Assembly (NCBI GenBank): GCA_030649345.1
Contig: JAUSKK010000003.1
Coordinates: 1 to 20,596 of the forward strand
DNA from: Candidatus Iainarchaeum sp.
GTDB taxonomy: Archaea > Iainarchaeota > Iainarchaeia > Iainarchaeales > 0-14-0-20-34-12
Length of the DNA stretch: 20,596 bases
Reading direction: 5' to 3'
Positions within the stretch are counted from its first letter, which is position 1, and every line of letters starts with the position of its first letter. Below are positions 1,455 through 20,596 of the stretch, in pieces. The notes beneath the pieces are model-generated. The model saw only the letters and a list, made by a program, of their open reading frames with translations, had not been told where the DNA came from and made no database searches. A program made the translations under genes and the position numbers.

Positions 1455-3224
1455 TTATCCTAGAATTGAAAATGCAATTTGAGTCAATCCTTGTTTGATG
1501 GCTTGAATGGTTTGATTTACCAATTCTACAGTTTCATTGGTGAACTGGTTTCCATTGGCTTGAGCTGTTTCTTTTATTTTGTTTTTATTTTCAACCATTA
1601 CATTAATTAATTCTTGGAATTGTTCTTGGACTGTTTTCCAAGCTTCATATTTAGGTGAATTAACTGACTGATAATAATTCATAATTTTTTCTGCCTGTGC
1701 TTCAAGTTTTTCAAATCGAATGCTTAAGTTTTCTAATTTGAATAATAATGCAATCATTTTTTCGCTGGTATCTTCTGAACTATTTTCTTGAGGATCTCCT
1801 TTGTAGGGTGTAGGCTCGTTCGATGGTTCTTTAGGATATCCTTGGGTGGGTGTTGTTTTTCCTTCAATAAAATCTACAAAACTTGCAAACGGCTGGGCTC
1901 CTACAATTTTTTTTCCATTAATAATAAATCCTGGAGTTCCATCAATGCCTGCTTGCATTCCTTCTTGATAATCTGCTTGCACCAATGATTTTTTGTTTCC
2001 ATTTTGAATACATTCTTGAAAAGTATACGTAATTATTCCAGTTGAATCTGCGTATTCTTTAAATTTTTCAATTGGATTGCTTAAGTTAGCCCAATCGTTT
2101 TGGTTTTGGAATAATAAATCATGAAATTCTGAAAATTTTTCTTGATCGCGTGCACATTCACTGGCCTCAGCAGCTATTTCTGCATTGGAATGAAACTGTA
2201 AAGGAAAATGTTTGAATTCATATTTGAATTTTTCTCCGTATCTTGCTTTCAATTGAGGCAAAGTTTGATCAAAAAATATTTTACAAAAAGGGCATTGGAA
2301 ATCTGAATATTCTATAAATTCAATTTCTCCTAAATTTTTCGGCACTGGGCCTAGAGTTTGAGTATTTTCAGTTCCTGATTCTGGTGGCTGTACTATGGGC
2401 GTAGGTTCTGTTTGAGGTACTGGCTGAGTTGTTGTAGTTTCTTGAGTGGGTGCCGGAGTTGCAGTTCCTTGTTCAGTTGTAGTATTGTTAATTACATGCC
2501 GGCCGCTTACATAACCTGATCCTGGTTGAGGCCCATTCTCTAAGTTTTGCACATATGTTGTTGCAACTTTAATAACATAATCTCCGTCTGGAACTTGTGT
2601 TGAATCCCAAGCATACACACATTGCCATGCACTGAATGGTGGTTCAACTGGCGGCTGACTACAGGTTAATTGTGTAATTGTATTCCATTGACTTAAATCA
2701 AATTCTGCAATTGTGTATGTCTGAAAATTATTCACATGATGCGCTTTCAGAATATAGGTCATGCTTTGCGCAGGTGGATTTAAACTGCCGCCTACTTTAA
2801 TTTCAAATATTCCTTGAATGCGTTGATTGGCTGTATATACATCTTGAATGCTGTAGGCTGCGGTTGTTTCAAAAATTGTAATTTCTCCGTTTGTATTGGT
2901 GCGTGTAACTCGAATAGTGTAATCTTCATTGGGTACATTGGTTGACCAGCCATACGTACATTTGGGTGGTTCATTTCCAACATATCCGCAATTTACATTG
3001 GGATTGCTTTTTCCATTGTTTACTTCAATGGTTTCAACTAAGTAGGCTTGCCGATCGCTTACACGAACAGCTTCTAGGGTAATTGTTTGATTTTCATTTA
3101 AATTCGAAATTCCTAAATCCACACCAAGCCAATTGGTTACTGATTGTGTTCCTGCTCCAGCATAAACTTGGGTTAAAAAAAATGTGAAAAATAACAAAGT
3201 TAAAAATTTTATTTTGGCTTGCAT
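1455..3224 (-). CDS. Secreted multi-domain DsbA-like thiol:disulfide oxidoreductase (thioredoxin fold, CPFC active site)
   Basis: 589-aa ORF with a signal peptide (MQAKIKFLTLLFFTFFLTQVYAGAG). Two internal ~110-aa repeats each carry a Cys pair (CGYVGNEPPKCTYGWSTNVPNEDYTIRV / CSQPPVEPPFSAWQCVYAWDSTQVPDGDYVIKV). A Thr/Pro-rich linker leads to a DsbA/thioredoxin-like domain ('EYSDFQCPFCKIF ... GTPGFIINGKKIVGAQP', CPFC at nt 2283-2294). The C-terminus is a helical, coiled-coil-like tail. Confidence 0.8.
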   Translation of the reverse strand: MQAKIKFLTLLFFTFFLTQVYAGAGTQSVTNWLGVDLGISNLNENQTITLEAVRVSDRQAYLVETIEVNNGKSNPNVNCGYVGNEPPKCTYGWSTNVPNEDYTIRVTRTNTNGEITIFETTAAYSIQDVYTANQRIQGIFEIKVGGSLNPPAQSMTYILKAHHVNNFQTYTIAEFDLSQWNTITQLTCSQPPVEPPFSAWQCVYAWDSTQVPDGDYVIKVATTYVQNLENGPQPGSGYVSGRHVINNTTTEQGTATPAPTQETTTTQPVPQTEPTPIVQPPESGTENTQTLGPVPKNLGEIEFIEYSDFQCPFCKIFFDQTLPQLKARYGEKFKYEFKHFPLQFHSNAEIAAEASECARDQEKFSEFHDLLFQNQNDWANLSNPIEKFKEYADSTGIITYTFQECIQNGNKKSLVQADYQEGMQAGIDGTPGFIINGKKIVGAQPFASFVDFIEGKTTPTQGYPKEPSNEPTPYKGDPQENSSEDTSEKMIALLFKLENLSIRFEKLEAQAEKIMNYYQSVNSPKYEAWKTVQEQFQELINVMVENKNKIKETAQANGNQFTNETVELVNQTIQAIKQGLTQIAFSILG

Positions 3225-5803: not shown

Positions 5804-6340
5804 ATGCCTGGAGATAGACTTATTCGAAGACATGAACGCAGACCTATGGGCCCGGGCGTTTCTTCTCAGAACATGCCTTCAGGAATGCCTTCTTTTGAAC
5901 CGACCGATCGCCAAAAACCAGAAGTAGTTATTTCTTTAATGAAAAACGATATCCGTGCTTTGAATAGTGCTATTGCAATTATTTCTCAAAAAATGAAACA
6001 CTTAATTCGAAATGAAAAAATCTTAGGCCGAAATTTAGTTGTATTAAATAAAAAACTCCAGCAAGGAGTTTATTCCAAAGGCCCTGAAGGATCCTCTGGA
6101 TCTTCTTCGGAAGACCTTCAAGCTTTAACTGTTCAACTGGAAAAACAAAACCAAGAAATTCAATCTTTATCTAATCTAATGGCTGAACTGCGTACTTCGC
6201 TGGCTTCCCGCGAAGAAGTCTTGGAATTACGTCATGTAATTGATTCCATTAATCCTTTAGAATTTACGACCCGCGATGATGTCAAAGAATTAATTGCATT
6301 GGCTTTCGAAAAGAAAAAAACAATTGCTAAAGAAAAATAA
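5804..6340 (+). CDS. Hypothetical coiled-coil protein with a disordered basic/Pro-rich N-terminus
   Basis: 178-aa ORF with an ATG start. The N-terminal ~40 aa are low complexity (RRHERRPMGPGVSSQNMPSGMPS), followed by heptad-like helices (LQALTVQLEKQNQEIQSLSNLMAELRTSLASREEVLELR). No family recognised. Confidence 0.6.
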   Translation: MPGDRLIRRHERRPMGPGVSSQNMPSGMPSFEPTDRQKPEVVISLMKNDIRALNSAIAIISQKMKHLIRNEKILGRNLVVLNKKLQQGVYSKGPEGSSGSSSEDLQALTVQLEKQNQEIQSLSNLMAELRTSLASREEVLELRHVIDSINPLEFTTRDDVKELIALAFEKKKTIAKEK

Positions 6341-6360: not shown

Positions 6361-7878
6361 TTAAATGTCAATTATTTCAACCAAGTTTTCTGTTTCACTG
6401 CTTAAGCTTGGGCGAATAAAACAACGATAACTTTTTTGTCCTTGAATTTGAATGGCTGCATCGTTTTCTTTCACCAAGGATACAATCGCACTTGTTTTGG
6501 TTTTTGCTTGTTCTGAAATTTCGTTTTCATTTTCTGCTTCCAAAATAACTCCTTTGTTTTTGCTTTGCAGTTTTCCCAAACTGTCTTGGATGGCTTGCAA
6601 GGTTGTGCTGAACTGTTCACTGGAAAGAATGTGTTCTGCTTTCGGTAAAACGATTACCAAGTCACTGGTTTCTTTTCCGCTTTCATATAATTCCAGCAAT
6701 TCTTTAAGTATGCTTTCAATAATCAAACTGTTTTTTCGGTAATCTTTGGATCGCAAACTAATAATATTGGCGCGGCCCAATGTTTTATGTGCTGCCTTTA
6801 AAATTTCGGAGACATTATTTCCATCGCCTAATATTTCTGGATATACTTGGTCTATGACTCGAAGCATTCGCACCATTCTTTGTTTGTTAAAATCACTGAA
6901 TGTTTCTGTAGTCGGCATTTTTTCAGCATTTGAAATTAATTCAGTCATGGACGTAAACTTTTTTTGATTTAGCAAGTTCACTATTTCTTTTTTGATTTTT
7001 TCATTTTCTATTCCAAACAATTCTGCAAAACCTAAGCCATCTATTTTTCCTAAATTAATTCGAATGTCTTTAATGATTTCGAATGTTTTGGTTGGAAACC
7101 CTAAAGGTTCTAAATCTACTTTGTATTTTTCAAGTTTTTTCCGGTCTTTGCTTGGATTTCCTAAACCGGAAAATTCGCTTTCAAATTCAAAAGCAATGAC
7201 TGGAATGCGGGACAACAATGCACTTTCAGTTAATACGCGCAAGGCATGAATTCTATTTTTTCGTTCTCCACCGACTACCAAGGCTGACTTAAAATAAGCA
7301 AACGGTTCTTTGATTCCTGTGCCTTCTTTGGTGATTCCAATAATTGTTTCTCCTATGCTGATTGTTTTTTCGACTATGCTTTTTTCAACATGAATGGTTT
7401 GCTTGGCTGTAAAAATTAAATGAATCAATGGAGTAGAATAAAACAATTCTTTTTCTTCACTGCTGCATTCTTTTAATTTTTTTAATTCAACTTCAAAAGC
7501 TATGCTGCTTTCTTGAATGGCTTTTCCGCGTTCTTCTAGTCTTTGAATCATTTCTTGCACTTCTTGATTAATCGCTGATTCATTGTACGAAACATAACTG
7601 GCTGTAGTGCTGAACATTAAATATTTTTCAACTTTTTCTCCTTTTACAATTAAACCTAAAGCTTTTCCTTTTTGTCCTTCCAGCAATCGTTCTAAATCTC
7701 CTTGAACAGAATACACCAAAAAACATTCCATTAATACGCCTAGCTTTTTTCCTTTTTCTTCATCATTGACTAAAGAAAGAATGAATTCTTCATTGCTGGA
7801 CAATAATTCTGAAAAATGTCCTTCCAATTGTCCGGAAAAAATGTTTTTCCACGGGCCTTGTGCTAGTTTAAAATCCAT
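6361..7878 (-). CDS. HerA/DUF87-like P-loop-fold protein with degenerate Walker A/B motifs (predicted catalytically inactive); tentative
   Basis: 505-aa ORF. 'ALVVGGERKNRIHALRVLTESALLSRIPVIAFEFESEF' has the strand / P-loop / helix / strand-'DxxGEY' layout of HerA/FtsK-type ATPases, but GxxGxGK[ST] is replaced by GGERKNR. 'LVIVLPKAEHIL' sits where Walker B (hhhhDEAH) would be, without the acidic pair. No canonical GK[ST] occurs anywhere in the protein. Confidence 0.4.
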   Translation of the reverse strand: MDFKLAQGPWKNIFSGQLEGHFSELLSSNEEFILSLVNDEEKGKKLGVLMECFLVYSVQGDLERLLEGQKGKALGLIVKGEKVEKYLMFSTTASYVSYNESAINQEVQEMIQRLEERGKAIQESSIAFEVELKKLKECSSEEKELFYSTPLIHLIFTAKQTIHVEKSIVEKTISIGETIIGITKEGTGIKEPFAYFKSALVVGGERKNRIHALRVLTESALLSRIPVIAFEFESEFSGLGNPSKDRKKLEKYKVDLEPLGFPTKTFEIIKDIRINLGKIDGLGFAELFGIENEKIKKEIVNLLNQKKFTSMTELISNAEKMPTTETFSDFNKQRMVRMLRVIDQVYPEILGDGNNVSEILKAAHKTLGRANIISLRSKDYRKNSLIIESILKELLELYESGKETSDLVIVLPKAEHILSSEQFSTTLQAIQDSLGKLQSKNKGVILEAENENEISEQAKTKTSAIVSLVKENDAAIQIQGQKSYRCFIRPSLSSETENLVEIIDI

Positions 7879-8052: not shown

Positions 8053-8601
8053 TTGGTTGTTATGCCAGTAAACGAAAAAATTGTCTTGGATACCATTAAG
8101 CAAATGAAAGAAGCCGGCTTAGAGGATTCCGTCATTTTAGCTACTTTAAAAGACATTGGCTTAACTGACTTGGAATCCAAGGAATTTTTAGCCAAAGCCA
8201 CCGGCAAATCAGAACCTTCGGTTCCGATACCTCCCACTAAAACTTTCAGCAAATCCGAAGAACCTAAAGAAGAATCTTTGGAAACCGAAGAAGAACCTAG
8301 TAAAGAAGATTCTGATCTCGACGATGAAGCACAAGAAGACGATTTAGACGATACTGCGCATGCAGTTACTCATGTAGCTTTGCAAGCACAAGGCCAAAAA
8401 TTGGATGACTTGCATGAAAAAGTTTCTGGTTTAGAAAAACCGCTTGAATTGACTCAAATTTTAGCAGAACTTCAATCCATTCGAAGAGACTTACAAGAAC
8501 TCAAAAAACAAGTCTCTGAATCCAAAGCCTTAAATGCAGCCACCCAAGACGTTATGGAAAAAGTTTTAGATGTGAATCGAAAGATTTTGAATAAACAGTA
8601 G
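8053..8601 (+). CDS. Hypothetical acidic coiled-coil protein
   Basis: 182-aa ORF as tracked, which starts at TTG 8053; the ATG at 8062 (MPVNEKIV...) is the more likely start. It has a small helical N-domain, a very acidic Glu/Asp/Ser linker (EEPKEESLETEEEPSKEDSDLDDEAQEDDLDD) and a C-terminal coiled coil (ILAELQSIRRDLQELKKQVSE). Confidence 0.65.
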   Translation: MVVMPVNEKIVLDTIKQMKEAGLEDSVILATLKDIGLTDLESKEFLAKATGKSEPSVPIPPTKTFSKSEEPKEESLETEEEPSKEDSDLDDEAQEDDLDDTAHAVTHVALQAQGQKLDDLHEKVSGLEKPLELTQILAELQSIRRDLQELKKQVSESKALNAATQDVMEKVLDVNRKILNKQ

Positions 8602-8857: not shown

Positions 8858-9520
8858 TTAAATGGCATGAATATTTTCCTTTTGGACTTCGCCTTTGTTT
8901 TCTTTTTTGCTTTTATGATCTTTGCTTTTTTCTTTATGACTGCTTGTGTCTTCTTTTTTGTCTTTATGCCCATGACTTCCTCCGCCCCCGCCAACTTTTC
9001 CAAATAATCCAAAAAAGCGATTAATAAATTCTTGAGTACCTTGAGATACTCTGGTCAAAATCGGCCGCGTTCTATATCCGCCTTTATTGAATACAATTTC
9101 TGAAGTTTTGTCTGCAATATTGCTGGACATGTCTTGAATGACTCCTATTCCAGGCGGTGTTGGATTTGCTTGTTCTACATCTTCTGCAATTCCTTGAATT
9201 AATTCTTGAGTTGTACTTTTCATTCCATTAACTACTTGCAGAATGCAAATTACTCCCAACAATAACATAAATGAATGCAAAGTAATCCAGCCATAGGCTG
9301 CATCCCAATAGGTTGGCACAATCATGGTGGCATAACCAATCAAAGTCAGCCAAGATAAACCGCCCCAAATAATTAAAATTATAAAAATAAAAAAGAATTT
9401 AATTTCCAATTCTTTGAACACAAATGCATTAATGTAAATTAAAATAAATAAAAGCCATGGACGCCACCAAATCATTTGGTCTTTCCATGGAATATTTTTG
9501 GTCTGATAAGCTTTACTCAT
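8858..9520 (-). CDS. Polytopic membrane protein (~4 TM) with a soluble C-terminal region and a Gly5 plus His/Lys-rich tail
   Basis: 220-aa ORF, the last gene of the co-oriented cassette. Hydrophobic helices include WLLFILIYINAFVF, FFFIFIILIIWGGLSWLTLIGY and ITLHSFMLLLGVICILQVV. The tail reads 'GGGGGSHGHKDKKEDTSSHKEKSKDHKSKKENKGE'. Confidence 0.65.
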   Translation of the reverse strand: MSKAYQTKNIPWKDQMIWWRPWLLFILIYINAFVFKELEIKFFFIFIILIIWGGLSWLTLIGYATMIVPTYWDAAYGWITLHSFMLLLGVICILQVVNGMKSTTQELIQGIAEDVEQANPTPPGIGVIQDMSSNIADKTSEIVFNKGGYRTRPILTRVSQGTQEFINRFFGLFGKVGGGGGSHGHKDKKEDTSSHKEKSKDHKSKKENKGEVQKENIHAI

Positions 9521-9544
9521 AATAGCATCCTTGTTTTGAATGAA

Positions 9545-9862
9545 TTAAAATCCACCCATTCCGCCGCCCATCATGCCCATGTCGCCGCCGGGCGCATACA
9601 TATCCGGCTCTTGTTCTTTGGCTTTAACTCCCAACAATAATGCTAAAATCATTAATCCAAATAAAATAAACGGCCAAAATTCATCAATGGAATTTCGGCT
9701 GACAAAAAACAAAACCAATGCAACCAACAATACAATCGTTGCCGACAAATTACGCAATCCTACAATTAACAAAATAATGGTTCCAAAAATTAGCCAATTT
9801 TGTCCAGTTTGCAAAGACAAGCCAACTAAAATAACTGCAATCAATAAAGTAAATGGATCCAT
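9545..9862 (-). CDS. Small 3-4 TM membrane protein with a Gly/Met-rich C-terminal tail
   Basis: 105-aa ORF, almost entirely hydrophobic helices, ending 'PDMYAPGGDMGMMGGGMGGF'. It lies 24 nt upstream of the next gene on the same strand. Confidence 0.65.
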   Translation of the reverse strand: MDPFTLLIAVILVGLSLQTGQNWLIFGTIILLIVGLRNLSATIVLLVALVLFFVSRNSIDEFWPFILFGLMILALLLGVKAKEQEPDMYAPGGDMGMMGGGMGGF

Positions 9863-9885
9863 ATTTTTTCATCTCCGTGTTAATA

Positions 9886-10146
9886 TTAATCTCTTAAGTG
9901 GTCTTCTCCGCCTACATCAGGGCCTGGCATTTTTTCTACAATATTTTTTCCAAAAAATGAAATCAAAAATAAAATTACTGGAATCCAGATAAGAATTGGG
10001 TGAGTAAAGAATCCTAAATAGGTAATAATGACTGCAAACAAAATAGCTAACTTAGCACTGCCCAATTGATTTTTAGCCCAGCCATAAACCCATACCAAAT
10101 AAAATAAAGAAAGAATAGTCTGCAAATCCGACCATAAATCAGCCAT
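9886..10146 (-). CDS. Small membrane protein (2-3 TM), paralog family 'AK-N-x-L-G-S-A'
   Basis: 86-aa ORF. The motif 'WAKNQLGSAKLAILFAVIITY' aligns with 'FVKNHVGTGPLGLAIMIGISW' (130-aa protein) and 'TVKGYLGSGMIPLLLSAILIY' (110-aa protein). Confidence 0.6.
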   Translation of the reverse strand: MADLWSDLQTILSLFYLVWVYGWAKNQLGSAKLAILFAVIITYLGFFTHPILIWIPVILFLISFFGKNIVEKMPGPDVGGEDHLRD

Positions 10147-10227
10147 AGGTTTTCACTCTATAAATAATACCTTTCTCTGAGTTTAAATACGTATGGCACG
10201 GTGTTGATTGCGCTTTCGCTTGTTTAA

Positions 10228-10560
10228 TTAATGTCTTTTGGTAACCATCATGGCAATGTTTAATCCCCAGATAATTACAGACAAGAAGTTGAATGCCAAT
10301 AGCACGTAAAAGAATACAAATATGCTGGTGGTTAAAAATGCATGTTTGATGACCAGTAAATAAATAAGTATTGCACTTAAAAGCAATGGAATCATTCCAC
10401 TGCCTAAATATCCTTTGACTGTAGAGTATAGCGTGAAAATTAAAATTAAGCGCATAATAATGTCTGCAGCTGGAAAAAACATCATAATCAAAGGAGGAAT
10501 GGCGGCCACTACAATAAAGCCTAACAATGCAAAAATAAACAAATTTCCTTTTGAATTCAT
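10228..10560 (-). CDS. Small membrane protein (~4 TM), same paralog family
   Basis: 110-aa ORF only 4 nt downstream of the 130-aa gene. It shares the 'VKGYLGSG' loop motif followed by a TM helix. Confidence 0.65.
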   Translation of the reverse strand: MNSKGNLFIFALLGFIVVAAIPPLIMMFFPAADIIMRLILIFTLYSTVKGYLGSGMIPLLLSAILIYLLVIKHAFLTTSIFVFFYVLLAFNFLSVIIWGLNIAMMVTKRH

Positions 10561-10564
10561 AATA

Positions 10565-10957
10565 TTACCTTAACATTCTTCCTCTGGCATGTGCTTGATG
10601 CATGGCGTGTTGTCTGGCTCTGTTTCGTTCAGCTACATCGGCTTGAGTTCCTTTGGGTGCTTCCATTCCATGCGGGGTAATGTGTTGTTGTCCCACAAAA
10701 AAGAAATCAATCAAGATTCCAGAAACTCCCATGGTTAATAGAGTGTACAATACGTATACTCCTCCAAAGAAAGACCAGGCATCGAATAAAATAAACCAAG
10801 AAATTCCAATCATAATGGCTAAACCTAAAGGCCCTGTTCCTACATGATTTTTTACAAACGAAATAATACTCAATAAAGCAAATATTTTCAAAGCCAAATT
10901 ATAGTCTTGGAATATTTCAGTAAAAAATAATGCAGTTAAAAAACTAAATTCAAACAT
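10565..10957 (-). CDS. Small membrane protein (3 TM) with a His/Arg-rich C-terminal tail, same paralog family
   Basis: 130-aa ORF 44 nt downstream of the giant gene. It carries the motif 'VKNHVGTG'. The tail reads 'HITPHGMEAPKGTQADVAERNRARQHAMHQAHARGRMLR'. Confidence 0.65.
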   Translation of the reverse strand: MFEFSFLTALFFTEIFQDYNLALKIFALLSIISFVKNHVGTGPLGLAIMIGISWFILFDAWSFFGGVYVLYTLLTMGVSGILIDFFFVGQQHITPHGMEAPKGTQADVAERNRARQHAMHQAHARGRMLR

Positions 10958-11001: not shown

Positions 11002-12363
11002 TTATTCTGCAATGCACTTGAATTCAGAGTTATCTGGGGCAGTATTCATGGTTTGTTCTAATGCAGTAATTCGTGCCTGATCGTATACTTTCTTTTCATC
11101 CCAGTAAAACAAGATTTTGGTTCCGTCATTAATCATGCACATTTCACCAGTTTGCACCAATTCAAACACTTGGCTAATAGATCCAATTTGAGTTGTTCGA
11201 TTGGCTAAACTCAAAGGTTGGTCTTGGAATCCAGTATGTCCTGCGTTCAATACTTTGGGTTTATTGTTTCCTTCTCCTTGAGTTCTAAAACTATACGTTT
11301 CATTAAACGGAGTATAGACTACTGTTTTTAAGAAAACATTTCCTGTTTTGTCAATCTGGGGCCATTCTTGATAATATGTATTACTTGCTGGGTCTCTAGA
11401 ATCTTGAGTATTATTGAATACATTGGATACTGAAATTCCAGTAAAATCCAAACATCTTCCAGCACCAGTCCAGTAAGTTAACACATTTCCAATATTTTGA
11501 ATTTGATTTCCTGAATCCATTAATTGATAATTGGCTCTATAAGGATCATCGCTTGTTTCAGTTTGATTCATTTTTAATAAAATAGCGTGCGGGTTGTTGG
11601 GTGTAAATTGTATTCTGGCCTGCGTTCCATCTTCGTTTCTTTCAATCTCCATTACTTTTCCTCTATTTTCTATAATATCATTATTCATTTTTTGCAAGCT
11701 TTCTTCTTGCTTTACTTTAAAAGTAACCAGTGGATTGCTGGAATTAATGGGTGTAGTTTTTAAAGTTTCAATATCCCCTGTGCCTGCAATAACATAAATT
11801 TCTTGTCCTTCATTTTCGTAATTCACTCCATATCCTTGTCTTCCATCAGCGCTATTCAATCCAACTTTTCCATCAAATGGCAAATAATAAAATGGGTGAT
11901 CGGGTACAGGATTTTGTATTCTGTCAAATACTGCATTTATGTTTACATTGCTGGCTCCGTTTCTGAAAAATTTCCATTCTTTGTTTCCAAAATCTATTTC
12001 CAAGTTTACTTTATATTTTCCAGGCACTCCAATATTGCTGGTGTCTGTGTATTTTCCTTTGAATTTGAATACTGTTGAATCTCCAAATATTTCTTTTAAT
12101 CCATCTTCGCTTTGCTTAAACCAATCTGGCGTATCTATCACACTATCCAATCCATAGGTTTCCACAAAGTCGGATTGGAAGTCTGTATTGGGATTGTCTT
12201 TCATTAACAAGGCTTCAAACGAAACAGTTTTATTTAAAGTTTGAATATCTGGAATTTCATTTGTCCACTGAACAGTACTTGAGTTAACTGCAAATACTGA
12301 AATTATTGGAACACCTGCAGCTTCTTTGGTAGTGTAAGGCAAAATACATTCTTCGGCTATTCC
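11002..12363 (-). other. Conserved C-terminal module (~450 aa) shared with the paralog at 19132-20596
   Basis: Collinear matches, giant vs paralog. ECILPYTTK / DCEPYTTT. FEALLMKDNPNTDFQSDF / FNAFLMEDGYSEDFRADF. PGKYKVNLEIDF / AGKYKVTLKVTY. DHPFYYLPFDGKVGLNSADGRQGYGVNYENE / DSPFYYMPFDGLLGKDTPNGRQGYGVNFREQ. RCLDFTG / RCKDFTG. GNVFLKTVVYTP / GDLYLGTVFFTP. ISQVFELVQTGEMCM / IQKVIQLVKEGQVCV. The C-termini are KCIAE / LCITD. Confidence 0.8.
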
Positions 12364-15300
12364 TGATTCTCCTTCGATTTGGAATATTTGGCTGGCACTT
12401 CGATTGTTTGCAATTCCTGGCGTAGATTCTTTAACTCCTGCTCCAAAAGCATACACTTTTCCTGGACTTAAATTATAAAAAGTAGTATTTGAAGTTAGAG
12501 TTCCATTGGCTGGCACAGTAATTGGAACTATTGCACTTTGATCTCTGGATCTATCTTGTAATGTAATAGCTGAAAATTGAATTTGTGCTGTTTGTGCTTG
12601 GGTTGTTTTATTTTCCACAGTTGCAGTTATAACTGCCGTTGTTTCCGTGATTTGGGTTTCCACTATTTTGACTCCAATATTTCCAACAGCTATTTCTAAA
12701 TTATTGGGCTGAGCTCCAGCTGCAGCATCTGCAATGGCTCCAGTTATTGGATTGGCTGGACAATTTAAGCTAGTTTCATTTTGTTCCAAAAATGTTTTTA
12801 ATGCATTCATTTTTTTGTTAACCATGATCGCAAATTGAGTTGCATCACAATATACTGCATTTTCATTACTGGCATCACAAGTATTGGCTTCAATTGCAGT
12901 ATTTCCAGTCCAAGTCCAATCAAACTTTACTTTAGGCATACTCGCATTTGTTCCAGTGTCTCCTTGAATTACTCCACGCATACAAGTTTCAGTATCTCTA
13001 AAGCTTGGTCTTTCTGCTGGCTTGGGTTTGGTGGCTAATTTTATGTGGTATTTGACTTCGCGTTCTTTAGTTATTCTTCCAGAACAATCTCCATTGCTGA
13101 AACTAACTTTTCCAGCAGCAAATTCTTGAGGTGTAATTTCATCTGCAAATGCTTCTTCGTCATTTTCGTCTTCTTCACAATATAAGTCATATTCTCCTTG
13201 TGCTTCTGGGCTGTGGGCTAAATCTCCAGCATAAATTCGTTCAGCGTATTTTAATTTTAATATTCCAAATTCATCTTTTACTGAACTAACTCCAGTTGTG
13301 TTGGTGATCTTTAATGCACTTCCGGTTTCAGCTCCATCTTGTTTTAAGTCAATTTCTTTTCTTCCTAATGAAACTGGAATATTGGCAATATCCCATTCAG
13401 AATTGCTTAGTTCTGTAAAGGTATGTTCTGTTAAGTCACTATTATCTAAATTCCCAGAACCGATTTGTGTAACTGGAACAATTCTGGCCATAGTCACAAA
13501 TTCCTCTTCACAATCTGGCCACATTATGATTGTTATAACCAATGCAGATGTTGCTAATATTCCTGCAGCCACCCAGCCAGCTACTGGAATTGTTGCAACT
13601 GTTGCAGCTAAATATAAAATTGGCACTGCAAAAGCTGCCGCTCCAGCACCAGCTCCAACACCTACGCCAATCCAATTTTCATTTTCTTCATCAATATGGT
13701 CTGCTACGCATTTATTAGTTTGAATAGTCACTCGTTCGAAAATATTTTTATTGGTTAAAATTGCAGTATCTTGTGCTTGCGGTCCAATGATTTGGAATGC
13801 GTAATTGCTTAAAGTAATTTGTTCCGAAGAATTGGGTTGAACTTTGACATCCAGTCTTTTAATTTCTTGCCCTGGCCCGGATTCAATAGAACTTTTGGCT
13901 TTAATGGGGATAGTATAAACTCCAGCCAAGTCTCTTCTTTCTACAACAACTTCACTTTCTGCACTTGCTCCAGTTCCAAATAATGTAACTCTTTGATTTT
14001 GCGGGCTGGCAATGGCAATTCTTCCTTCTGAAGTTCCACCGGAACAACCTGGATCATTTTTGCAAAAGTCTAAAGTAATTCTAGCCTGTGCACAATCTGG
14101 AACCAAAGAAACTTTGAATCTTATTTCTTCGGTGTCTGAAGCAATCTCTGGATTGGTTGTATCAATATTAATGCATTGTTCTAAATTCACAATATATGCT
14201 TTGACTGTAATATTTTCTGGAGTGCTTCCAATCAATGGTTGTTCTGCATTTGTTTCTGGATTACTAATAAATCCTTTAATGGTAATGGTGAATCCAACTT
14301 TTTGTCCAATAAATTCTGCATTCGGTCTAAAGCCTAATTGCAAAGAATAATCTTGATCTGTTCGAATTTTTTCCAACAAAGTATTGGTTTGTCCATTGCG
14401 TAAAGGAATAATTGATCCTTCAGAATTCGGGCCAGTCATAGTTAAAGTGGCTGTTCCTCCAGCTGTTGGTCCTTCAGTCCAATTCAATGTAACTTTTAAT
14501 CCATCCAATTCTACAGGCACATCATTGAGTGTACAATTGTTTGTTAGTTTGAACTCTGTAACTTCTTCAATATCTTTGGTTACAATATCCCATACTGGAA
14601 TCTTGTTTCCGTTTAAAACAATACAACCGCTTGCAGGTCTTCCAGCAAACTGTACAGATCCTTGCACTGGAATTTGGAAAGCATAAGCATTATTCACTCC
14701 ATCTAAGAAAGCCAAACCAGTTAATTGAGTAGTAAATGTTTCTGTACTTTCTTGCATTCGCATTTCAGCGTCTCTAGTTAAAGCAGCCAAAGCAGTAAAG
14801 TTTTGAGTTCCATCCACTGAAATGATTTGCAATGCTTCATCTTGACTTTGAGTTTCCAGTAAAGCCTGCATTCTTCCGGTATCAAATATTCCGGGTGTTG
14901 CTCTTTGAATTTCTCCAAATCTTAAATTTTGAATTCGAATATTTGCTCCAGCTCGGTTATGCAAACTAAACGTTTGAGATTCGTCTGTTCGAGTTCTAGT
15001 ATTCAAGTTCATGAATTGAATTTCTTCCGGCAAAAAATCTACCACATTGGTATCTGTATTCAAAACTAATTCGCCTTCCACATATCCTTCTTTGATGGCT
15101 GAAACAATGACTTGAGCATTCGGAGGCAATCCAGGAATAGTGAATAAAACTTGTCCAGTTAAATTTGGATTCGTTCCAGATATTTGAGTTCCGTTTGAAA
15201 TTAATGTAGGATTTAATTCTCCGGGTAATAATGTTCTAACTTCTACTCGTACTCCATCTAAATTAAATTCTCTGGTTTGTTCTGAACTTCCTCTAGTTTG

Positions 15301-18225
15301 AGGTTCAATTCCTTTAATTTGTAATTGCAATTGTGTATCCGAATACGCCGGCAATACTTCTCCTAAAGGTGCAATTTTTTCAATGCTTAATTCTTTTTCA
15401 GACAAAACTCTTAATGCAATAATTTTTTCAAATACAATTTGATCATTTCCAAATAAAGTAATTTTTAAAGTTGTAGCTTTGGCTTTCACTGGTTTAAAAG
15501 AAAGCATTCCTTGAATTTGTTTATTGATGGTGAATTCACCCAATGCACTGGCAGTCACACTTTTTTTATCCGAAGAATTAATTCTGCTGTCTTGTCCATC
15601 TGCATTCACTAACTCTAAAGAACCTACTTCTAAAACTGATTGGTTTTGATTATTGATTTCTTCTACCAATAATCGCATGTTTTCATATTCTGTTCTGGAA
15701 ACATTTCTTAAATTAAATTTTAAATTATAGTTTGAAAAATTTCTTACATTATATCCTTGGGTTACTGGAAAAATTAAGTCTGCTCCAATCCCTGGAATAT
15801 ATCCTTTGAGTTGTTCTCCGCTCCAGCAAAAATTATTGGTTGTAGAATCACAAGCAGAATCTTCGCCTTCTTTGAATTGTGCAGTATATGTTTGAGCATA
15901 AGGTTCATTCACCAATTCAGCAGCACTCGGAGCTAAAGCTAAAACATTATCTAAAGGATCTCTTAAATACGAATTACTGGTATTGGCTCCCCATGCTCTA
16001 TAAAATAAATCTAAATTTTCCAATTCAGCTTCAGCATTTACATGAATTCCTATCCCTACACTGTATTCAATAGGTTCTACATCTATCCAGGAAATATTCA
16101 CCCATTTGGCATTGCTTAAAGTTTCAGTTTCTCCATCCCAGCCAGTATTTTGATTGTAGGTAGTGTATCTTTTTACAATTGGATTTCCGCCTGCATTAAT
16201 TTTGTCAAAAATAACATACAAAGCATCATTCTCAATTCTGTCTGTGTTTCCTACTCTAAAATGAATTCCTCCATTCCGCAAATCTTGTCCTGCTGGATAC
16301 GTTACTTTGAGTCTTGCTTCATAATTCTGTCCAGCCAATAATTGGGTTACACTTTCTTGTCCGAATTCATCAAAAATTCCTTCCAACACAATTTCAGGTC
16401 CTCTTTGATCTCCTTTTCCAAAAAACTGTGGTTTCATTACTCCAGTAACAGCATATTCTTCTTCTGCCCATAAATCAATCACTTGACTTTGCCAAGTCAT
16501 ATAATCTGGATGAGAAATTCGAACATAAATTTTAGTATCTGCTTTTACTTCAATTGAATCTTCGCCTGTAACCAAAGGTCTTTCTCCTTGCAATACACTT
16601 CTTCCATTCCAAGTAAACACTTCATATTTGGCTCGGCCATCATTAATGGTTAAATTGTCTTCAAATTTGACTGCTCGAATATTCAAACCAGCTGTTCCTA
16701 CCTGCATGGTCACCGTAAATTCATTAATAGTTTCCAATTTGATTTCTTTAGAATCTGCTGCAGTTCCTCCTTGAGATCTGCTTTTGACTGCAAAAGCAAA
16801 TACTTCTTCAGTTAAGCTTCCTAAAATAAATTCAACATTTCCATTGACATCAGTAACTTTTTGATTATCTACAGCACTTGCATCACTGACTTCAACTATA
16901 GCTCCATTGCTTTTTTTTCTAAACATGACTCGTGCATTTACAACTTTATCATTGGCTTCGTCTTGGACATGCACTTTAGTTTTTCCTGAATTTAAAGAAG
17001 TAATTTTATCCAAGCGTAAAGTTAAATCTGCGTTAGCATTGGTTGTACTTATTTCTGCGGGAAAATATCCTTCATTGACTCCCCCAATTTTTTTAGCACC
17101 AATCAAGTATTCTTTTTGATCTGTAATTGGAAATTCTACTTGAGTTTGAGTAGCAGTAATTGTTTTTTCGCTTAACACAGTTCCTTCTCTTGCATCCTTG
17201 AGTACAACTATGGCTCCAATCACATTGCTTTGATTGGCTTTATCTAAAACTCTTACTTTGATTCTGCCCAATAAATTTTTGCTAACCCTTAATTCTACTG
17301 GAGTTCTTTGCCCTGAATTAACTTGAATTCCTTCTACATTGCTTGAACCATATTTGTCGGTTGTATCTTCTACACTTACAGTATATCTTCCGGGTGCTAT
17401 TTCCATTCGCACAGTTCCATATTCGCCGGTAGTTTCTGAATAATTTTCTCCAGTTGTTTTCTGTGCTCTGACTGTAAAGCTTGTATCTGTAACTAAATTT
17501 CCAGAACCATCGAGTACACTTACATCGATAAATCCATTGGGTACTGTTCGTTCTTGTAAATTAATTATTTTTTCAGTTTCAGTTTCAGAAAAATTTGCAT
17601 TGCTTTCTTCAAAATCATCGCTGTTCACTTGAACACTTAAATTTCCGCAATTCAATGGAGTTTCAATTTCCATGACTCCATCTTGATCTTCATCACTGGC
17701 TCTGAATGGCGCAATCGTTGTATTGGAACACGAAAAAGTTGCTTGAATATTTTTTCCAGTAATGAGTCCTTGAGAATCCTGGAACAAAATGCTTTTGGTT
17801 CTGGTTTCTAAAAATTTTTCCAAAATTGCAATCGTTTGCGTTAAATCAGTTTCTCCGATTGCAAAATCTTGCTCAAATAGCTGAAATTGTTTTCCGTCTA
17901 ATTCCATTTCATTAATTTTAATTTTAATAATAGAATTGGCTTTGGCTGCCAATACAATTTTTCCAGCTGAATCTGTGTGTCCTTGTTTCCAGTCCCCAGC
18001 CAAAGAAGTATAACTGACTTCCACATTATTTAATGGATTTCCTGTGCTGGTGGTAACTGTAAAAATAGCTTTAACTTGTGCTCCAGTTTCTCCGCTTAAA
18101 TTGGCATTGGGTAATACAAAAAAGTAAACCAAGGCTGCTAAAACAATTAAGCCCAAGACTGCCAATGCTTTCTTGTTTTGAGTTAACTTAGAAAGACTAT
18201 CTGCCAGAGTTTCAGCAAATCCCAT
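11002..18225 (-). CDS. Giant (2407-aa) membrane-anchored, Cys- and sequon-rich surface protein; no characterised family recognised
   Basis: An uninterrupted 7.2-kb ORF in AT-rich DNA is very unlikely by chance. It has an N-terminal anchor (KKALAVLGLIVLAALVYFFVLP), tandem beta-sandwich repeats and many N-x-S/T sequons. An internal double hydrophobic segment spans aa ~1518-1569, and the C-terminal module is shared with the neighbouring paralog. Confidence 0.9.
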   Translation of the reverse strand: MGFAETLADSLSKLTQNKKALAVLGLIVLAALVYFFVLPNANLSGETGAQVKAIFTVTTSTGNPLNNVEVSYTSLAGDWKQGHTDSAGKIVLAAKANSIIKIKINEMELDGKQFQLFEQDFAIGETDLTQTIAILEKFLETRTKSILFQDSQGLITGKNIQATFSCSNTTIAPFRASDEDQDGVMEIETPLNCGNLSVQVNSDDFEESNANFSETETEKIINLQERTVPNGFIDVSVLDGSGNLVTDTSFTVRAQKTTGENYSETTGEYGTVRMEIAPGRYTVSVEDTTDKYGSSNVEGIQVNSGQRTPVELRVSKNLLGRIKVRVLDKANQSNVIGAIVVLKDAREGTVLSEKTITATQTQVEFPITDQKEYLIGAKKIGGVNEGYFPAEISTTNANADLTLRLDKITSLNSGKTKVHVQDEANDKVVNARVMFRKKSNGAIVEVSDASAVDNQKVTDVNGNVEFILGSLTEEVFAFAVKSRSQGGTAADSKEIKLETINEFTVTMQVGTAGLNIRAVKFEDNLTINDGRAKYEVFTWNGRSVLQGERPLVTGEDSIEVKADTKIYVRISHPDYMTWQSQVIDLWAEEEYAVTGVMKPQFFGKGDQRGPEIVLEGIFDEFGQESVTQLLAGQNYEARLKVTYPAGQDLRNGGIHFRVGNTDRIENDALYVIFDKINAGGNPIVKRYTTYNQNTGWDGETETLSNAKWVNISWIDVEPIEYSVGIGIHVNAEAELENLDLFYRAWGANTSNSYLRDPLDNVLALAPSAAELVNEPYAQTYTAQFKEGEDSACDSTTNNFCWSGEQLKGYIPGIGADLIFPVTQGYNVRNFSNYNLKFNLRNVSRTEYENMRLLVEEINNQNQSVLEVGSLELVNADGQDSRINSSDKKSVTASALGEFTINKQIQGMLSFKPVKAKATTLKITLFGNDQIVFEKIIALRVLSEKELSIEKIAPLGEVLPAYSDTQLQLQIKGIEPQTRGSSEQTREFNLDGVRVEVRTLLPGELNPTLISNGTQISGTNPNLTGQVLFTIPGLPPNAQVIVSAIKEGYVEGELVLNTDTNVVDFLPEEIQFMNLNTRTRTDESQTFSLHNRAGANIRIQNLRFGEIQRATPGIFDTGRMQALLETQSQDEALQIISVDGTQNFTALAALTRDAEMRMQESTETFTTQLTGLAFLDGVNNAYAFQIPVQGSVQFAGRPASGCIVLNGNKIPVWDIVTKDIEEVTEFKLTNNCTLNDVPVELDGLKVTLNWTEGPTAGGTATLTMTGPNSEGSIIPLRNGQTNTLLEKIRTDQDYSLQLGFRPNAEFIGQKVGFTITIKGFISNPETNAEQPLIGSTPENITVKAYIVNLEQCINIDTTNPEIASDTEEIRFKVSLVPDCAQARITLDFCKNDPGCSGGTSEGRIAIASPQNQRVTLFGTGASAESEVVVERRDLAGVYTIPIKAKSSIESGPGQEIKRLDVKVQPNSSEQITLSNYAFQIIGPQAQDTAILTNKNIFERVTIQTNKCVADHIDEENENWIGVGVGAGAGAAAFAVPILYLAATVATIPVAGWVAAGILATSALVITIIMWPDCEEEFVTMARIVPVTQIGSGNLDNSDLTEHTFTELSNSEWDIANIPVSLGRKEIDLKQDGAETGSALKITNTTGVSSVKDEFGILKLKYAERIYAGDLAHSPEAQGEYDLYCEEDENDEEAFADEITPQEFAAGKVSFSNGDCSGRITKEREVKYHIKLATKPKPAERPSFRDTETCMRGVIQGDTGTNASMPKVKFDWTWTGNTAIEANTCDASNENAVYCDATQFAIMVNKKMNALKTFLEQNETSLNCPANPITGAIADAAAGAQPNNLEIAVGNIGVKIVETQITETTAVITATVENKTTQAQTAQIQFSAITLQDRSRDQSAIVPITVPANGTLTSNTTFYNLSPGKVYAFGAGVKESTPGIANNRSASQIFQIEGESGIAEECILPYTTKEAAGVPIISVFAVNSSTVQWTNEIPDIQTLNKTVSFEALLMKDNPNTDFQSDFVETYGLDSVIDTPDWFKQSEDGLKEIFGDSTVFKFKGKYTDTSNIGVPGKYKVNLEIDFGNKEWKFFRNGASNVNINAVFDRIQNPVPDHPFYYLPFDGKVGLNSADGRQGYGVNYENEGQEIYVIAGTGDIETLKTTPINSSNPLVTFKVKQEESLQKMNNDIIENRGKVMEIERNEDGTQARIQFTPNNPHAILLKMNQTETSDDPYRANYQLMDSGNQIQNIGNVLTYWTGAGRCLDFTGISVSNVFNNTQDSRDPASNTYYQEWPQIDKTGNVFLKTVVYTPFNETYSFRTQGEGNNKPKVLNAGHTGFQDQPLSLANRTTQIGSISQVFELVQTGEMCMINDGTKILFYWDEKKVYDQARITALEQTMNTAPDNSEFKCIAE
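13519..13677 (-). other. Internal Gly/Ala-rich double hydrophobic segment (predicted TM hairpin) splitting the giant protein into ~1470-aa and ~840-aa parts
   Basis: aa ~1517-1569 read 'NWIGVGVGAGAGAAAFAVPILYLAATVATIPVAGWVAAGILATSALVITIIMW'. That is two ~22-aa hydrophobic stretches joined by a very short 'TIP' turn. Acidic residues flank both sides (DEENEN / PDCEEEF). Confidence 0.6.
16429..18078 (-). other. Tandem beta-sandwich repeats (carboxypeptidase-regulatory-like / Ig-like), about 5-6 copies (giant protein aa ~50-599)
   Basis: Recurrent ~90-aa units have the typical pattern 'v.V.d..g.pl.nA.V.......g...tTd..G...f.l..G.Y.v.v'. Examples are 'GFIDVSVLDGSGNLVTDTSFTVRAQ...GEYGTVRMEIAPGRYTVSVED', 'GRIKVRVLDKANQSNVIGAIVVLKD' and 'GKTKVHVQDEANDKVVNARVMF...TDVNGNVEF'. 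Confidence 0.6.
18109..18174 (-). other. N-terminal signal-anchor of the giant protein, fitting a loose class III (archaeal type IV pilin-like) signal-peptide pattern
   Basis: '...TQNKKA|LAVLGLIVLAALVYFFVLP': basic residues, then Ala, then a ~20-aa hydrophobic stretch. 'KALAVL' fits the pattern [KRDE][GA][ALIFQMVED][ILMVTAS]x3. Confidence 0.35.
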
Positions 18226-18431: not shown

Positions 18432-18752
18432 TTGGATATGTCCAAGACTTCAAAACAAAGACTGACAGTCCAGACAATTCTTCAATTGCTTGAAAAAAAT
18501 AAATCCTCTTTTGCATCATTGGGTGTGGAAAAGCTTGGTTTGTTTGGTTCTGTTTTGCATAATCAGCAAAAGTCTGATAGTGATCTGGATTTTTTGGTTT
18601 CGTTTAATCATCCTACTTTTGACAATTATATGAACTTAAAGTTTTCTTTGGAGAAACTTTTTCATCGAAAAATAGATCTGGTTACTGAAAAAAGTCTTAA
18701 GCCATCGCTGAGTTATATTAAACAGGAAGTTCAATATGTCTCATTCACCTAA
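18432..18752 (+). CDS. mntA: Minimal nucleotidyltransferase (MNT), MntA-like antitoxin
   Basis: ~105-aa ORF. The tracked start is TTG 18432, and the ATG at 18438 is more likely. It has the hallmark '[21 protein letters not shown]' (GS-x9-11-DxD pol-beta-type NTase motif). It overlaps the downstream HEPN gene by 17 nt. Confidence 0.8.
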
Positions 18753-19077
18753 GCTTTACTTACAAGATATTTTAGAGTCCATTTCTAAGATCGAGTCTTA
18801 TTCTAAAAATTTATCCAAAGAAAAGTTTGCAGACAATTCTTTGGTGAAAGATGCCGTTGTTCGAAATTTGGAAATTATTGGAGAAGCCGTTAAACAACTT
18901 CCAGTAGAACTAAAGGAAAAGCATTCTGAAATTGACTGGAAAAAGATTGCAGGCTTGCGAGATATTTTAATTCATGCTTATTTTGGAATTGATGTTGACA
19001 TTCTTTGGGATATTGTTCAAAACAAGCTTCCGGAATTAAAAAAAGCTGTTCAGGAAATGAAGGCTGATTTAAAATAA
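18736..19077 (+). CDS. hepT: HEPN-domain (DUF86/HepT-like) toxin
   Basis: 113-aa ORF with the R-x4-H-x-Y motif '[12 protein letters not shown]' in the expected C-terminal third. It is translationally coupled to the MNT gene. Confidence 0.8.
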
Positions 19078-19131: not shown

Positions 19132-20596
19132 TTAGTCTGTAATACACAATTCAGCCAAGTCTTCTCTGGAAACTGTAGCTAATTCTTGTACCAATGCTCT
19201 ATAACCTACTCCGCCGGTTAAAGTAGTTCCTTCGGTTCCAGTTATTCCTTCTGTTCCTGCCAATATGGCTGCTGGATTCCAGAAGAATCTTGCATTTGCA
19301 CTATTGCCGACTCCTTCTACACAAACTTGTCCTTCTTTAACCAATTGAATTACTTTTTGGATGGATTTAATTTGTTCAGATGGGAAGTCTCCGCCAATAG
19401 CTAATTGTTCTGTGACTTCTGTATTGCTTGCATTACTTCCTTGTTTAATAAATTGAGTTCCATCGTCTTGTGCGTCCACCAATCTTAATGTTCCGGCTGT
19501 TCCTTCTTGGGGTGTAAAGAATACTGTTCCTAAGTATAAGTCTCCTGCTTTTTTGATGTCACAGAATTCTAAACCATAATGGCTTGTGCTTAATCCTGCA
19601 CCTGAACATTTAGTGACTCCAACTCCAGCATGCAAGTCTGGACTGTCTCTGTAAGCTGTAGCTGAATCTCTTCCTGTAAAGTCTTTACATCTTAAAGCAA
19701 TGGAATTCCAGTAAGCAATATTTTCTCCAGTTAACTGCGGTTCTCCGTTTAAGGTTAAACTATAATATGCAAATGCTTTGTCTGATTTTCCGCCAGCAAT
19801 TTTTAATACTACTGGAGTTGCTTTGCTGGGACTAAATATTACATTGATTTGTTGTTGAGCTGGTCTTCGTTCTACATTCAATACTAAACCTCGGGTTGAT
19901 TGATCTGTATTTAATTTTTTGAAATCATTTTCTACACTGGTCAAAACCCATCCATTCGGAATTGGATTACTGTTGGCAATTGTGCTGGATAAAATAGTTT
20001 CAGCTAAATCACTAGGCTCATTGAATGTAATGCTTTCAATACTTTGTTCTCTGAAGTTTACTCCATATCCTTGTCTTCCATTGGGTGTATCTTTTCCTAA
20101 TAATCCATCGAATGGCATGTAATAAAATGGACTGTCTGGATCAGGTGCTTGCAGTCTTTCTAAGATTACTTCAATGACTGCTTTGCTGTCTGCTTCTGTT
20201 CCATTTAATCCTAAACTCCAAGGCTTGCTTTTATCGTACGTTACTTTGAGTGTAACTTTATATTTTCCTGCTCTAATTGGTGCATTGGGTGCCTCTAAGA
20301 ATGGACTGACAAATTTGAATTTGTTAGGGTTCGCAAAGTAATTGTTTAATAAATTTCTAAAGTCTGCTTGGCTTGGGAAATCAAAGAATGATTTGGTTAA
20401 AGCATAATCAATAAAGTCTGCTCTAAAGTCTTCACTGTAACCATCTTCCATTAAAAATGCATTAAAGCTGGTTAATTCTGTTGCTTTATTGAAAGCGTCT
20501 CTAGCTTGTCCATTTCCTTCATTGGCTTGCGCGAACTGGGTTAATCTTGTTGTAGTGTAAGGTTCACAGTCTGTGCTGGTAACTCCTGCATTTCCT
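19132..20596 (-). CDS. Second giant surface-protein paralog; only the C-terminal ~488 aa are in the window (5' end beyond the window edge)
   Basis: The frame stays open from the tracked Met (20451) to nt 20596. My translation of 20452-20595 is ...GNAGVTSTDCEPYTTTRLTQFAQANEGNGQARDAFNKATELTSFNAFL, followed by MEDGY... These extra residues still align with the 2407-aa protein, so the Met at 20451 is internal. Confidence 0.8.
   Translation of the reverse strand, partial: GNAGVTSTDCEPYTTTRLTQFAQANEGNGQARDAFNKATELTSFNAFLMEDGYSEDFRADFIDYALTKSFFDFPSQADFRNLLNNYFANPNKFKFVSPFLEAPNAPIRAGKYKVTLKVTYDKSKPWSLGLNGTEADSKAVIEVILERLQAPDPDSPFYYMPFDGLLGKDTPNGRQGYGVNFREQSIESITFNEPSDLAETILSSTIANSNPIPNGWVLTSVENDFKKLNTDQSTRGLVLNVERRPAQQQINVIFSPSKATPVVLKIAGGKSDKAFAYYSLTLNGEPQLTGENIAYWNSIALRCKDFTGRDSATAYRDSPDLHAGVGVTKCSGAGLSTSHYGLEFCDIKKAGDLYLGTVFFTPQEGTAGTLRLVDAQDDGTQFIKQGSNASNTEVTEQLAIGGDFPSEQIKSIQKVIQLVKEGQVCVEGVGNSANARFFWNPAAILAGTEGITGTEGTTLTGGVGYRALVQELATVSREDLAELCITD

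Follow-up and report, generated by a model that had tools for sequence, protein, structure and literature searches.

A cysteine-containing C-terminal domain of paired giant proteins in Iainarchaeota is apparently new in fold and may be the self-association module of an S-layer-like coat

The window analysed here is the whole 20,596-bp contig of a Candidatus Diapherotrites (= Iainarchaeota, DPANN) metagenome-assembled genome (MAG), an AT-rich sequence (GC ~0.32-0.38) in which no tRNA gene was found. On its minus strand lie two genes for giant proteins, called giant A (the upstream gene) and giant B (the downstream gene) in the following; residue numbers follow B unless stated otherwise. Both giants end in a domain of ~450 amino acids (aa) which, as modelled, forms one discrete structural domain, which so far has no relatives in described families or solved structures, and which its cysteines strongly indicate to be extracellular. 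Giant archaeal cell-surface proteins are a kind already known; what is apparently new is the terminal domain. We tentatively propose, giving it not quite an even chance, that this domain is the self-association module of a two-component surface-layer (S-layer)-like coat.

Giant B is encoded by an open reading frame at 11002-18225 (minus strand; 2407 aa, 264 kDa, isoelectric point (pI) 4.7; GenBank MDO8427660.1), annotated in GenBank solely as a 'carboxypeptidase-like regulatory domain-containing protein'; the database names for the whole family are only this one or 'hypothetical protein'. Giant A is represented by the 3' 1.46 kb of its gene (19132-20596, minus strand), and copy A is incomplete because the contig end cuts the gene; A orthologs lie upstream of B in ~20 related loci. 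The terminal domain comprises residues 1958-2407 of B (11005-12354, minus strand), with the near-invariant cysteines C1960, C2258, C2363 and C2404, and residues 8-487 of the A fragment (19135-20574, minus strand), where there are six cysteines, the four common ones and an A-lineage pair, C330/C345.

An earlier reading made from the letters of the contig, the sequence-only reading, had drawn this module at 11002-12363, which corresponds to residues 1955-2407 of B plus the stop codon and coincides with the part that AlphaFold2 models confidently (~1960 to the end). It had held that the two C-termini align collinearly at roughly 30% identity, and indeed BLASTP gives 123/408 identities (30%) with 49% positives at an expect value (E) of 6e-45, while the identity in a MAFFT alignment is 33%. 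The motifs PFYY[LM]PFDG-x7-[DN]GRQGYGVN, RC[LK]DFTG and [FY]LxTVx[YF]TP were found in both copies as described; a fourth motif is present as well, although its pattern had been written wrongly, and reads ELV[QK][TE]G[EQ][MV]C. Conserved cysteines do lie at both ends of the domain, and the copies close on CIAE and CITD directly before the stop codon, but the spacing given for the first cysteine, C-x-x-PYTT, is that of B only, A having C-x-PYTT.

The module is widespread in one group of archaea. An exhaustive HMMER search with a two-copy profile hidden Markov model against 1.84 billion representative proteins found it in 558 of them at E<=1e-3 and in 278 at E<=1e-30; it is thus not the private, lineage-specific duplication that the sequence-only reading had considered possible. 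Among the best 150 of the 558 matching proteins, a median of 4 residues (maximum 33) separates the end of the module from the C-terminus, and most of these proteins are 2,200-3,200 aa long. A word-indexed homolog search with the single domain found no match, and with a 27-sequence profile it matched one protein, P0026. When species-representative genomes were scanned with the 2-sequence alignment, 39 loci were obtained, nearly all from Iainarchaeum, Micrarchaeota or 'archaeon' MAGs and one from Ca. Iainarchaeum andersonii. In the sampling so far, the family belongs to DPANN archaea of the Iainarchaeota (Diapherotrites). Loci of the typical arrangement A-B(-m1-m4), where m1-m4 are the small membrane protein genes described below, also occur in bins named Thaumarchaeota, Chloroflexi and Candidatus Falkowbacteria (L020, L022 and L024); the common origin of all three in one sample series, AB_1215, suggests that these contigs were put into the wrong bins. 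No relative was found among viral contigs, phage genomes or plasmids, and a viral or mobile origin of the family was rejected on this ground.

That the domain can be assigned to no known family, as the sequence-only reading had stated, was borne out by wider searches. Neither copy matched Pfam-A 2025 (E<=1), NCBIfam 20.0 or PHROGs v4 (both E<=0.1), and PDB sequence and profile searches with the domain gave no match. A Pfam scan of 20 full-length family members returned generic families only, nearly all of them beta-sandwich. In the literature searched for giant proteins of Iainarchaeota, for HerA with large proteins in DPANN archaea and for a Diapherotrites S-layer, no earlier description of the family or the locus was found, and the ARM-1 papers do not mention such a gene cluster.

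With a 27-sequence alignment, AlphaFold2 models the domain at a predicted local distance difference test score (pLDDT) of 88 and a predicted template modelling score (pTM) of 0.80; disorder is confined to the first 13 residues, the N-terminal part is alpha/beta and the remainder is beta-rich. The two window copies alone gave a pLDDT of 29, and the 27-sequence alignment was used for the model. Foldseek found no credible match in the PDB, where the best one (E 0.014, TM-score 0.09) involved small immunoglobulin (Ig)-like pieces, or in BFVD, where one match reached E 6.8e-4 but with a TM-score of 0.07 and a root-mean-square deviation of 30 A. A lectin, peptidase or glycosidase fold had been named as something to look for; no sequence or structural likeness to a solved structure was found, and the fold, as modelled, is apparently new.

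The extracellular location is strongly indicated, because the near-invariant cysteines, their even counts and the pairing of lineage-specific cysteines all indicate disulfides. Across 146 modules, C1960 is conserved in 88%, C2258 in 99%, C2363 in 100% and C2404 in 98%. There are four cysteines in 87 modules, six in 37 and eight in 6, so that 130/146 counts are even; odd counts are rare, with three cysteines in 12/146 (not looked at singly) and five or seven in 4/146. The lineage-specific cysteines vary in pairs (phi 0.95 for one pair), and the A-type cysteine has its partner 20-26 columns upstream in 39/39 sequences. The covariation of cysteines that the sequence-only reading expected of disulfide pairs was therefore found, both in the even counts and in the paired co-occurrence, and secretion signals complete the picture of a disulfide-bonded extracellular domain: at least 8 stand-alone forms of ~1000 aa begin with Sec-type signal peptides. 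The giants are acidic, B has 35 N-x-S/T sequons, and 16 conserved cysteines are spread along the entire ectodomain. In the model, C1960 belongs to the first strand, and C2404 is found close to the end, where residues 457-461 of the model (B 2402-2406, including the cysteine) are mostly beta-strand; the pattern therefore likely staples both termini onto the body of the domain. The likely pairs, by these modelled positions, are C1960-C2258 and C2363-C2404.

The kinship of the two giants goes well beyond the module. The sequence-only reading was right that the upstream parts could not be compared within the window, copy A being cut by the contig end, and it was this cut that set the 450-aa limit; the giants do not have the module alone in common. 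Among 87 complete family members, homology to B is full-length in 84, covering both the C-terminal region and the N-terminal ~1200+ residues. For orthologs of A (46% identical to the contig fragment), the alignment with B spans the N-terminal ~1300 aa and resumes at ~1620/1725, from where it continues to the end. Judged by this homology, A and B are full-length paralogs from an ancient duplication. A neighbour-joining tree of 62 modules separates an A clade (6-8 cysteines, upstream gene) from a B clade (4 cysteines, downstream gene), with one contig copy in each, and in most of ~20 loci the gene at position 1 belongs to clade A and the one at position 2 to clade B. Three giants in tandem are seen in L013, L037 (Ca. 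Iainarchaeum andersonii) and L040, with >20 kb of coding sequence.

All giants follow one order of four parts: an N-terminal signal-anchor, a run of Ig/transthyretin-like sandwiches that continues into unassigned domains for ~900 aa, a hydrophobic hairpin, which may be split, and a conserved C-terminal unit of about 690 aa that closes with the terminal domain. In B, the N-terminal hydrophobic segment comprises residues 17-45 (18091-18177, minus strand) and is a predicted signal-anchor; it is kept family-wide, usually after a ~30-45-aa motif, MGLKDxYYxxED..., which would lie in the cytoplasm if the N-terminus of the anchored protein faces inward. Written out further, as MGLKDxYYxxEDxYY...DxIDKxVPSF, the motif opens most giants, for example P0012, P0021, P0024 and a 1759-aa protein of L040, and residues 1-16 of B are a short degenerate version, MGFAETLADSLSKL. 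The tandem transthyretin/Ig-like beta-sandwiches follow at residues ~46-560 (16546-18090, minus strand) and are recognised through Pfam matches in relatives, where the N-terminal ~550 aa match CarboxypepD_reg in 20/20, Big_1 in 14/20, bMG3 in 13/20 and SpaA in 12/20; in B itself these matches are weak. Kinship with alpha-2-macroglobulin was considered and dropped, as the bMG3/MG4 matches are generic beta-sandwiches in the stalk.

The hairpin of B, residues 1518-1572 (13510-13674, minus strand), is Gly/Ala-rich, has a Kyte-Doolittle hydropathy >1.6 over 55 residues, is predicted to form two transmembrane helices and separates the N-terminal lobe from the C-terminal unit. Proteins of the B lineage have it; the A lineage has two weaker Gly-rich hydrophobic segments with a 60-450-aa insert between them. 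Some of these inserts (P0008 ~1480-2000, P0004 and others, corresponding to B 1495-1600) are packed with cysteines in repeated CC/CxxC-like arrangements or are Thr/Pro/Ser-rich. The upstream part of the C-terminal unit (12355-13050, minus strand) consists of a Cys-rich subdomain, residues 1726-1835, with invariant C1748, C1783, C1793 and C1822 and the motif YCDATQF, followed by a variable stretch, 1836-1957, which leads into the terminal domain. The alignment of A-lineage orthologs and of the stand-alone ~1000-aa proteins with B begins at ~1720/1750; the unit also exists free-standing behind a signal peptide. Indeed, in L040 (4670-13024, plus strand; the same coordinates in L041) one giant paralog flanked by two intact giants is split at the hairpin region into an N-part of 1759 aa, with an N-terminal anchor, a cadherin-like match near its end and no C-terminal transmembrane helix, and a C-part of 1007 aa, with a Sec-type signal peptide and the conserved C-terminal unit.

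Mean pairwise identity is 0.37 for the Cys-rich piece 1726-1835 and 0.31 for the C-terminal domain 1958-2407, whereas the N-terminal 1500 aa reach 0.23-0.26 and the linkers 0.13-0.15; by this measure the C-terminal domain is one of the two best-conserved parts of the giants. The description of the module as a functional or anchoring core therefore stands as far as conservation goes and fails for the anchor. The domain contains no hydrophobic segment and ends 3 residues past its last cysteine, and the predicted membrane segments are residues 17-45 and 1518-1572; the predicted anchors are the N-terminal transmembrane helix and the mid-protein hairpin, and the domain is, from its sequence, not an anchor. 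A role in anchoring or sorting, either through an archaeosortase-type C-terminal signal or through lipid attachment at the terminal cysteine, is accordingly largely refuted. The near-invariant Cys-Ile 2-5 residues from the C-terminus does look superficially CaaX-like; the giants, however, have neither a C-terminal hydrophobic helix nor a PGF-like motif, and no archaeosortase (PGF-CTERM-type) signal was found, there being no hydrophobic segment after 1572 and a tail of median 4 residues in the best 150 proteins. CaaX-like lipidation was dropped, since the parity of the cysteines and the terminal residues around the last one, modelled mostly as beta-strand, favour a disulfide at that cysteine.

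We propose the following arrangement. The A and B proteins would assemble through their C-terminal domains into a two-component S-layer-like coat, which the N-terminal anchors would hold on the membrane; where a lineage secretes the C-terminal unit as a protein of its own, this too would take part. The domain would thereby play the part of the lattice-forming, cysteine-containing non-canonical domains of colossal archaeal S-layer proteins. Two features lead to this proposal. The terminal domain is better conserved than the stalk over deep divergence, which points to an invariant endogenous partner rather than to variable ligands; and the split C-terminal unit, whose signal looks cleavable and which lacks a strong anchor, can stay on the cell only by binding to something there. 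A weak hint comes from the best PDB profile match of the full-length family, 8qox_B (E 4.8e-4 over 80 aa), a chain of 475 aa that we take to be SlaB of the Sulfolobus S-layer.

A close known counterpart is the newly described PySLP, a 'colossal' S-layer protein of 292 kDa from Pyrobaculum arsenaticum, which has Thermoproteota homologs, an Ig-like pillar, cysteine pairs that occur solely in its lattice-forming non-canonical domains, and a crown domain that matches no known structure (bioRxiv 10.64898/2026.08.21.746120). The likeness of these ingredients to those of the giants is a further reason for the proposal. Likened to it by description, the giants have in common with PySLP a length of ~2,400-2,700 aa, a membrane anchor that passes once, Ig-like beta-sandwiches in long arrays, cysteine pairs concentrated in non-canonical domains, acidity and putative N-glycosylation. 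They differ in that PySLP has a C-terminal anchor and a basic tail, whereas the giants are anchored N-terminally, come as two or three tandem paralogs and have a mid-protein hydrophobic hairpin; PySLP belongs to hyperthermophiles and the giants to low-GC DPANN archaea. A PySLP-like layout, with an N-terminal Sec signal, a C-terminal transmembrane helix, a beta-hairpin before it and a basic tail ending in Lys, is absent from B, which begins with a hydrophobic anchor, ends in ...KCIAE and has no C-terminal transmembrane helix. Like the giants, SlaA and SlaB of Sulfolobales (PDB 8QOX; PMC10903991) are two proteins encoded side by side, although these two are not mutual paralogs and are much smaller than the giants, and the anchor of SlaB is C-terminal. 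SLP_Mh of Micrarchaeota (bioRxiv 10.1101/2021.04.28.441871) resembles the giants in being a cell-surface glycoprotein of a DPANN archaeon that has a hydrophobic segment near its N-terminus. In Ca. Huberiarchaeum (PMC6792436), the Cys-rich proteins are also very large, membrane-anchored, partly Cys-rich and extracellular, in ultra-small archaea with small genomes, but no domains common to them and the giants were detected. Bacterial beta-sandwich array proteins (CarboxypepD_reg, Big_1, bMG3/MG4 macroglobulin, SpaA/Cna-B) resemble the giants in the N-terminal ~550-aa stalk only and have no relation to the C-terminal domain; no thioester, isopeptide or sortase feature was found, although no search aimed at these was made. 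Ca. Nanohaloarchaeum antarcticus has the SPEARE proteins, giant surface proteins proposed for host interaction, with recognisable protease, adhesion and nuclease domains; in contrast to these, the giants have recognisable domains limited to beta-sandwiches.

Several points weigh against the coat. The giants are known here from sequences and a model, and the proposed disulfide pairs were read from conservation and from where the cysteines fall in the secondary structure. The 8qox_B match covers just a generic beta-sandwich in the middle of the giant, outside the C-terminal domain. The canonical S-layer domains TIGR01564, TIGR01567 and DUF1608 were not detected by NCBIfam in the two giants or by Pfam in the giants and 20 relatives, while SLP_Mh, a 101-kDa protein with hardly any sulfur-containing amino acids, does have TIGR01564/TIGR01567 domains. 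The anchor polarity is inverted with respect to the compared S-layer proteins, the anchor of PySLP being C-terminal. Moreover, the hairpin of B would put the domain ~400 residues from the membrane, so that 'distal' may not apply to it. Finally, conserved residues such as D2019, R2129, Y2132 and D2275 could equally form a binding or catalytic site.

The genes around the giants bear on how the domain might work. The minus-strand order of transcription is A, B, small membrane proteins, a 505-aa protein, a family-B DNA polymerase (PolB), a DsbA-like protein and an M24 aminopeptidase. Directly downstream of B lie four small polytopic membrane proteins and a poorly conserved fifth (8858-10957 in all, minus strand), recognised by hydropathy and synteny: m1 (10565-10957), m2 (10228-10560), m3 (9886-10146) and m4 (9545-9862). 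These four, of 86-130 aa, occur in the same order in 18-20 related loci at up to 66% identity, and in Pfam and NCBIfam they gave no consistent match, only scattered single-member Pfam noise. The order A-B-m1-m2-m3-m4-(m5)-cc1-[505 aa]-cc2-PolB recurs in ~14-20 loci at 30-55% protein identity. The 505-aa protein (6361-7878, minus strand) is syntenic with the giants in 14 loci, and its family profile matches HerA in the PDB (4d2i, E 0.0022) together with four other HerA/HerA-like chains; these matches (E 0.002-0.12) cover the C-terminal ~100 residues only, and DUF87 is matched in 2/11 members. The presumed Walker A and B motifs, placed by eye in the family alignment, read GGExxDR and LPEA, without the canonical Lys-Ser/Thr or Asp, and from this degenerate P-loop the HerA-like protein is probably not an active ATPase. 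The ~180-aa genes flanking it, cc1 and cc2 (8053-8601 and 5804-6340, plus strand), look coiled-coil by composition and faint Pfam matches (ATG16, DUF6674), and the trio is syntenic with the giants in 8-16 loci.

The DsbA-like thiol-disulfide oxidoreductase (1455-3224, minus strand; 589 aa, secreted; Thioredoxin_4 E 1.5e-24, DSBA E 1.7e-15) begins with a signal-peptide-like N-terminus, continues with ~290 unassigned, partly Thr/Pro-rich residues and a thioredoxin domain with a CPFC active site, and ends in a helical-looking tail; by NCBIfam it is related, below the family cut-off, to the Rcas_1661 thioredoxin-like lipoprotein family. A secreted protein of this kind on the contig indicates that the organism has the capacity for extracytoplasmic disulfide formation. 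Its gene is not syntenic, being missing at the same position in L002, where M24 directly follows PolB. The 906-bp gap between A and B holds, on the opposite strand, an MntA/HepT toxin-antitoxin pair, formed by a nucleotidyltransferase (18432-18752, plus strand; PF01909/PF18765, E 3e-11) and a HepT-like HEPN RNase (18736-19077, plus strand; PF01934, E 2.9e-32) whose genes overlap by 17 nt; the pair looks like a local insertion, because the A-B spacing in related loci is only ~10-100 bp.

Other roles for the domain have to be weighed against self-association. It could be the ligand-binding tip of giant adhesins that attach the cell to a host, a microbe, a mineral or a polymer, a possibility we regard as serious though doubtful. 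The layout of a membrane anchor, a beta-sandwich stalk (with SpaA, Big_1, SdrD_B and Invasin_D3-type matches) and a terminal globular domain is typical of adhesins, and Ca2+ or glycans could be bound by the conserved Asp cluster D2010, D2015 and D2019; most DPANN archaea live as episymbionts, and large Cys-rich surface proteins have been proposed for host interaction in Huberarchaeota (PMC6792436), while for Iainarchaeota a free-living ability has been argued (PMC10936187). Heads that track variable hosts, however, usually outpace their stalks in evolution, and here the head is among the best-conserved parts clade-wide; two paralogs in fixed order suggest an invariant partner, and no lectin or adhesin fold was matched by Foldseek in the PDB or BFVD. 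That the domain is instead a new surface-displayed hydrolase or transferase, processing glycans or peptides, is very improbable. Its invariant polar residues (D2019, R2129, Y2132 and D2275, with D2010, D2015, N2181, R2188, D2260 and N2376 near-invariant) and the scavenging dependence of DPANN cells would be compatible with such an enzyme, but the invariant positions are mostly occupied by Gly, Pro, Trp, Tyr or Cys, which is the pattern of structural domains, no His, Ser or Glu is invariant, no cysteine lies outside the predicted disulfide pattern, and no enzyme family was matched by sequence or fold.

The conserved neighbourhood raises the further possibility of an envelope-spanning machine for transport or cell bridging, built from the giants, m1-m4 and the HerA-like protein, with the domain as its extracellular working end; we consider this unlikely. 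HerA/VirB4-type proteins and small membrane proteins form the core of conjugation-like and archaeal DNA-import systems (Ced and type IV secretion systems), and the likeness to these generally known systems, the retention of the gene order from A through the HerA-like gene to cc2 at such low identity, and the conserved N-terminal motif of most giants, which if cytoplasmic could dock partners there, all speak for it. The HerA-like similarity is marginal, however, and the presumed Walker motifs, lacking the canonical residues, make it improbable that this protein drives transport; none of m1-m4 matched a VirB or Ced family, and the L040 lineage has giants without m1-m4 directly downstream. In addition, the synteny block also holds PolB and a methionine aminopeptidase, so that part of it may be mere conserved gene order. 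A bolder version, which we hold to be quite improbable, is that the A/B pair, m1-m4 and the P-loop-degenerate HerA-like protein would form a new Iainarchaeota envelope apparatus, in which the domain would be a new fold for cell-cell contact and the hairpin of B a fusion-peptide-like, membrane-inserting opener of bridges.

DPANN genomes are ~1 Mb in size, and the ~15-22 kb spent on two or three giant paralogs suggests a central role in the envelope or in cell contact. The present analysis defines a family of several hundred sequence clusters that is absent from Pfam, and offers a modelled, apparently new domain with a predicted disulfide pattern, a fixed A/B pair and natural split forms for expression. 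If the domain is a lattice or heterodimerisation module, the giants would represent a new type of archaeal coat with a polarity inverted relative to the compared S-layer proteins; if it binds a partner cell, it would provide a handle on host recognition by DPANN archaea.

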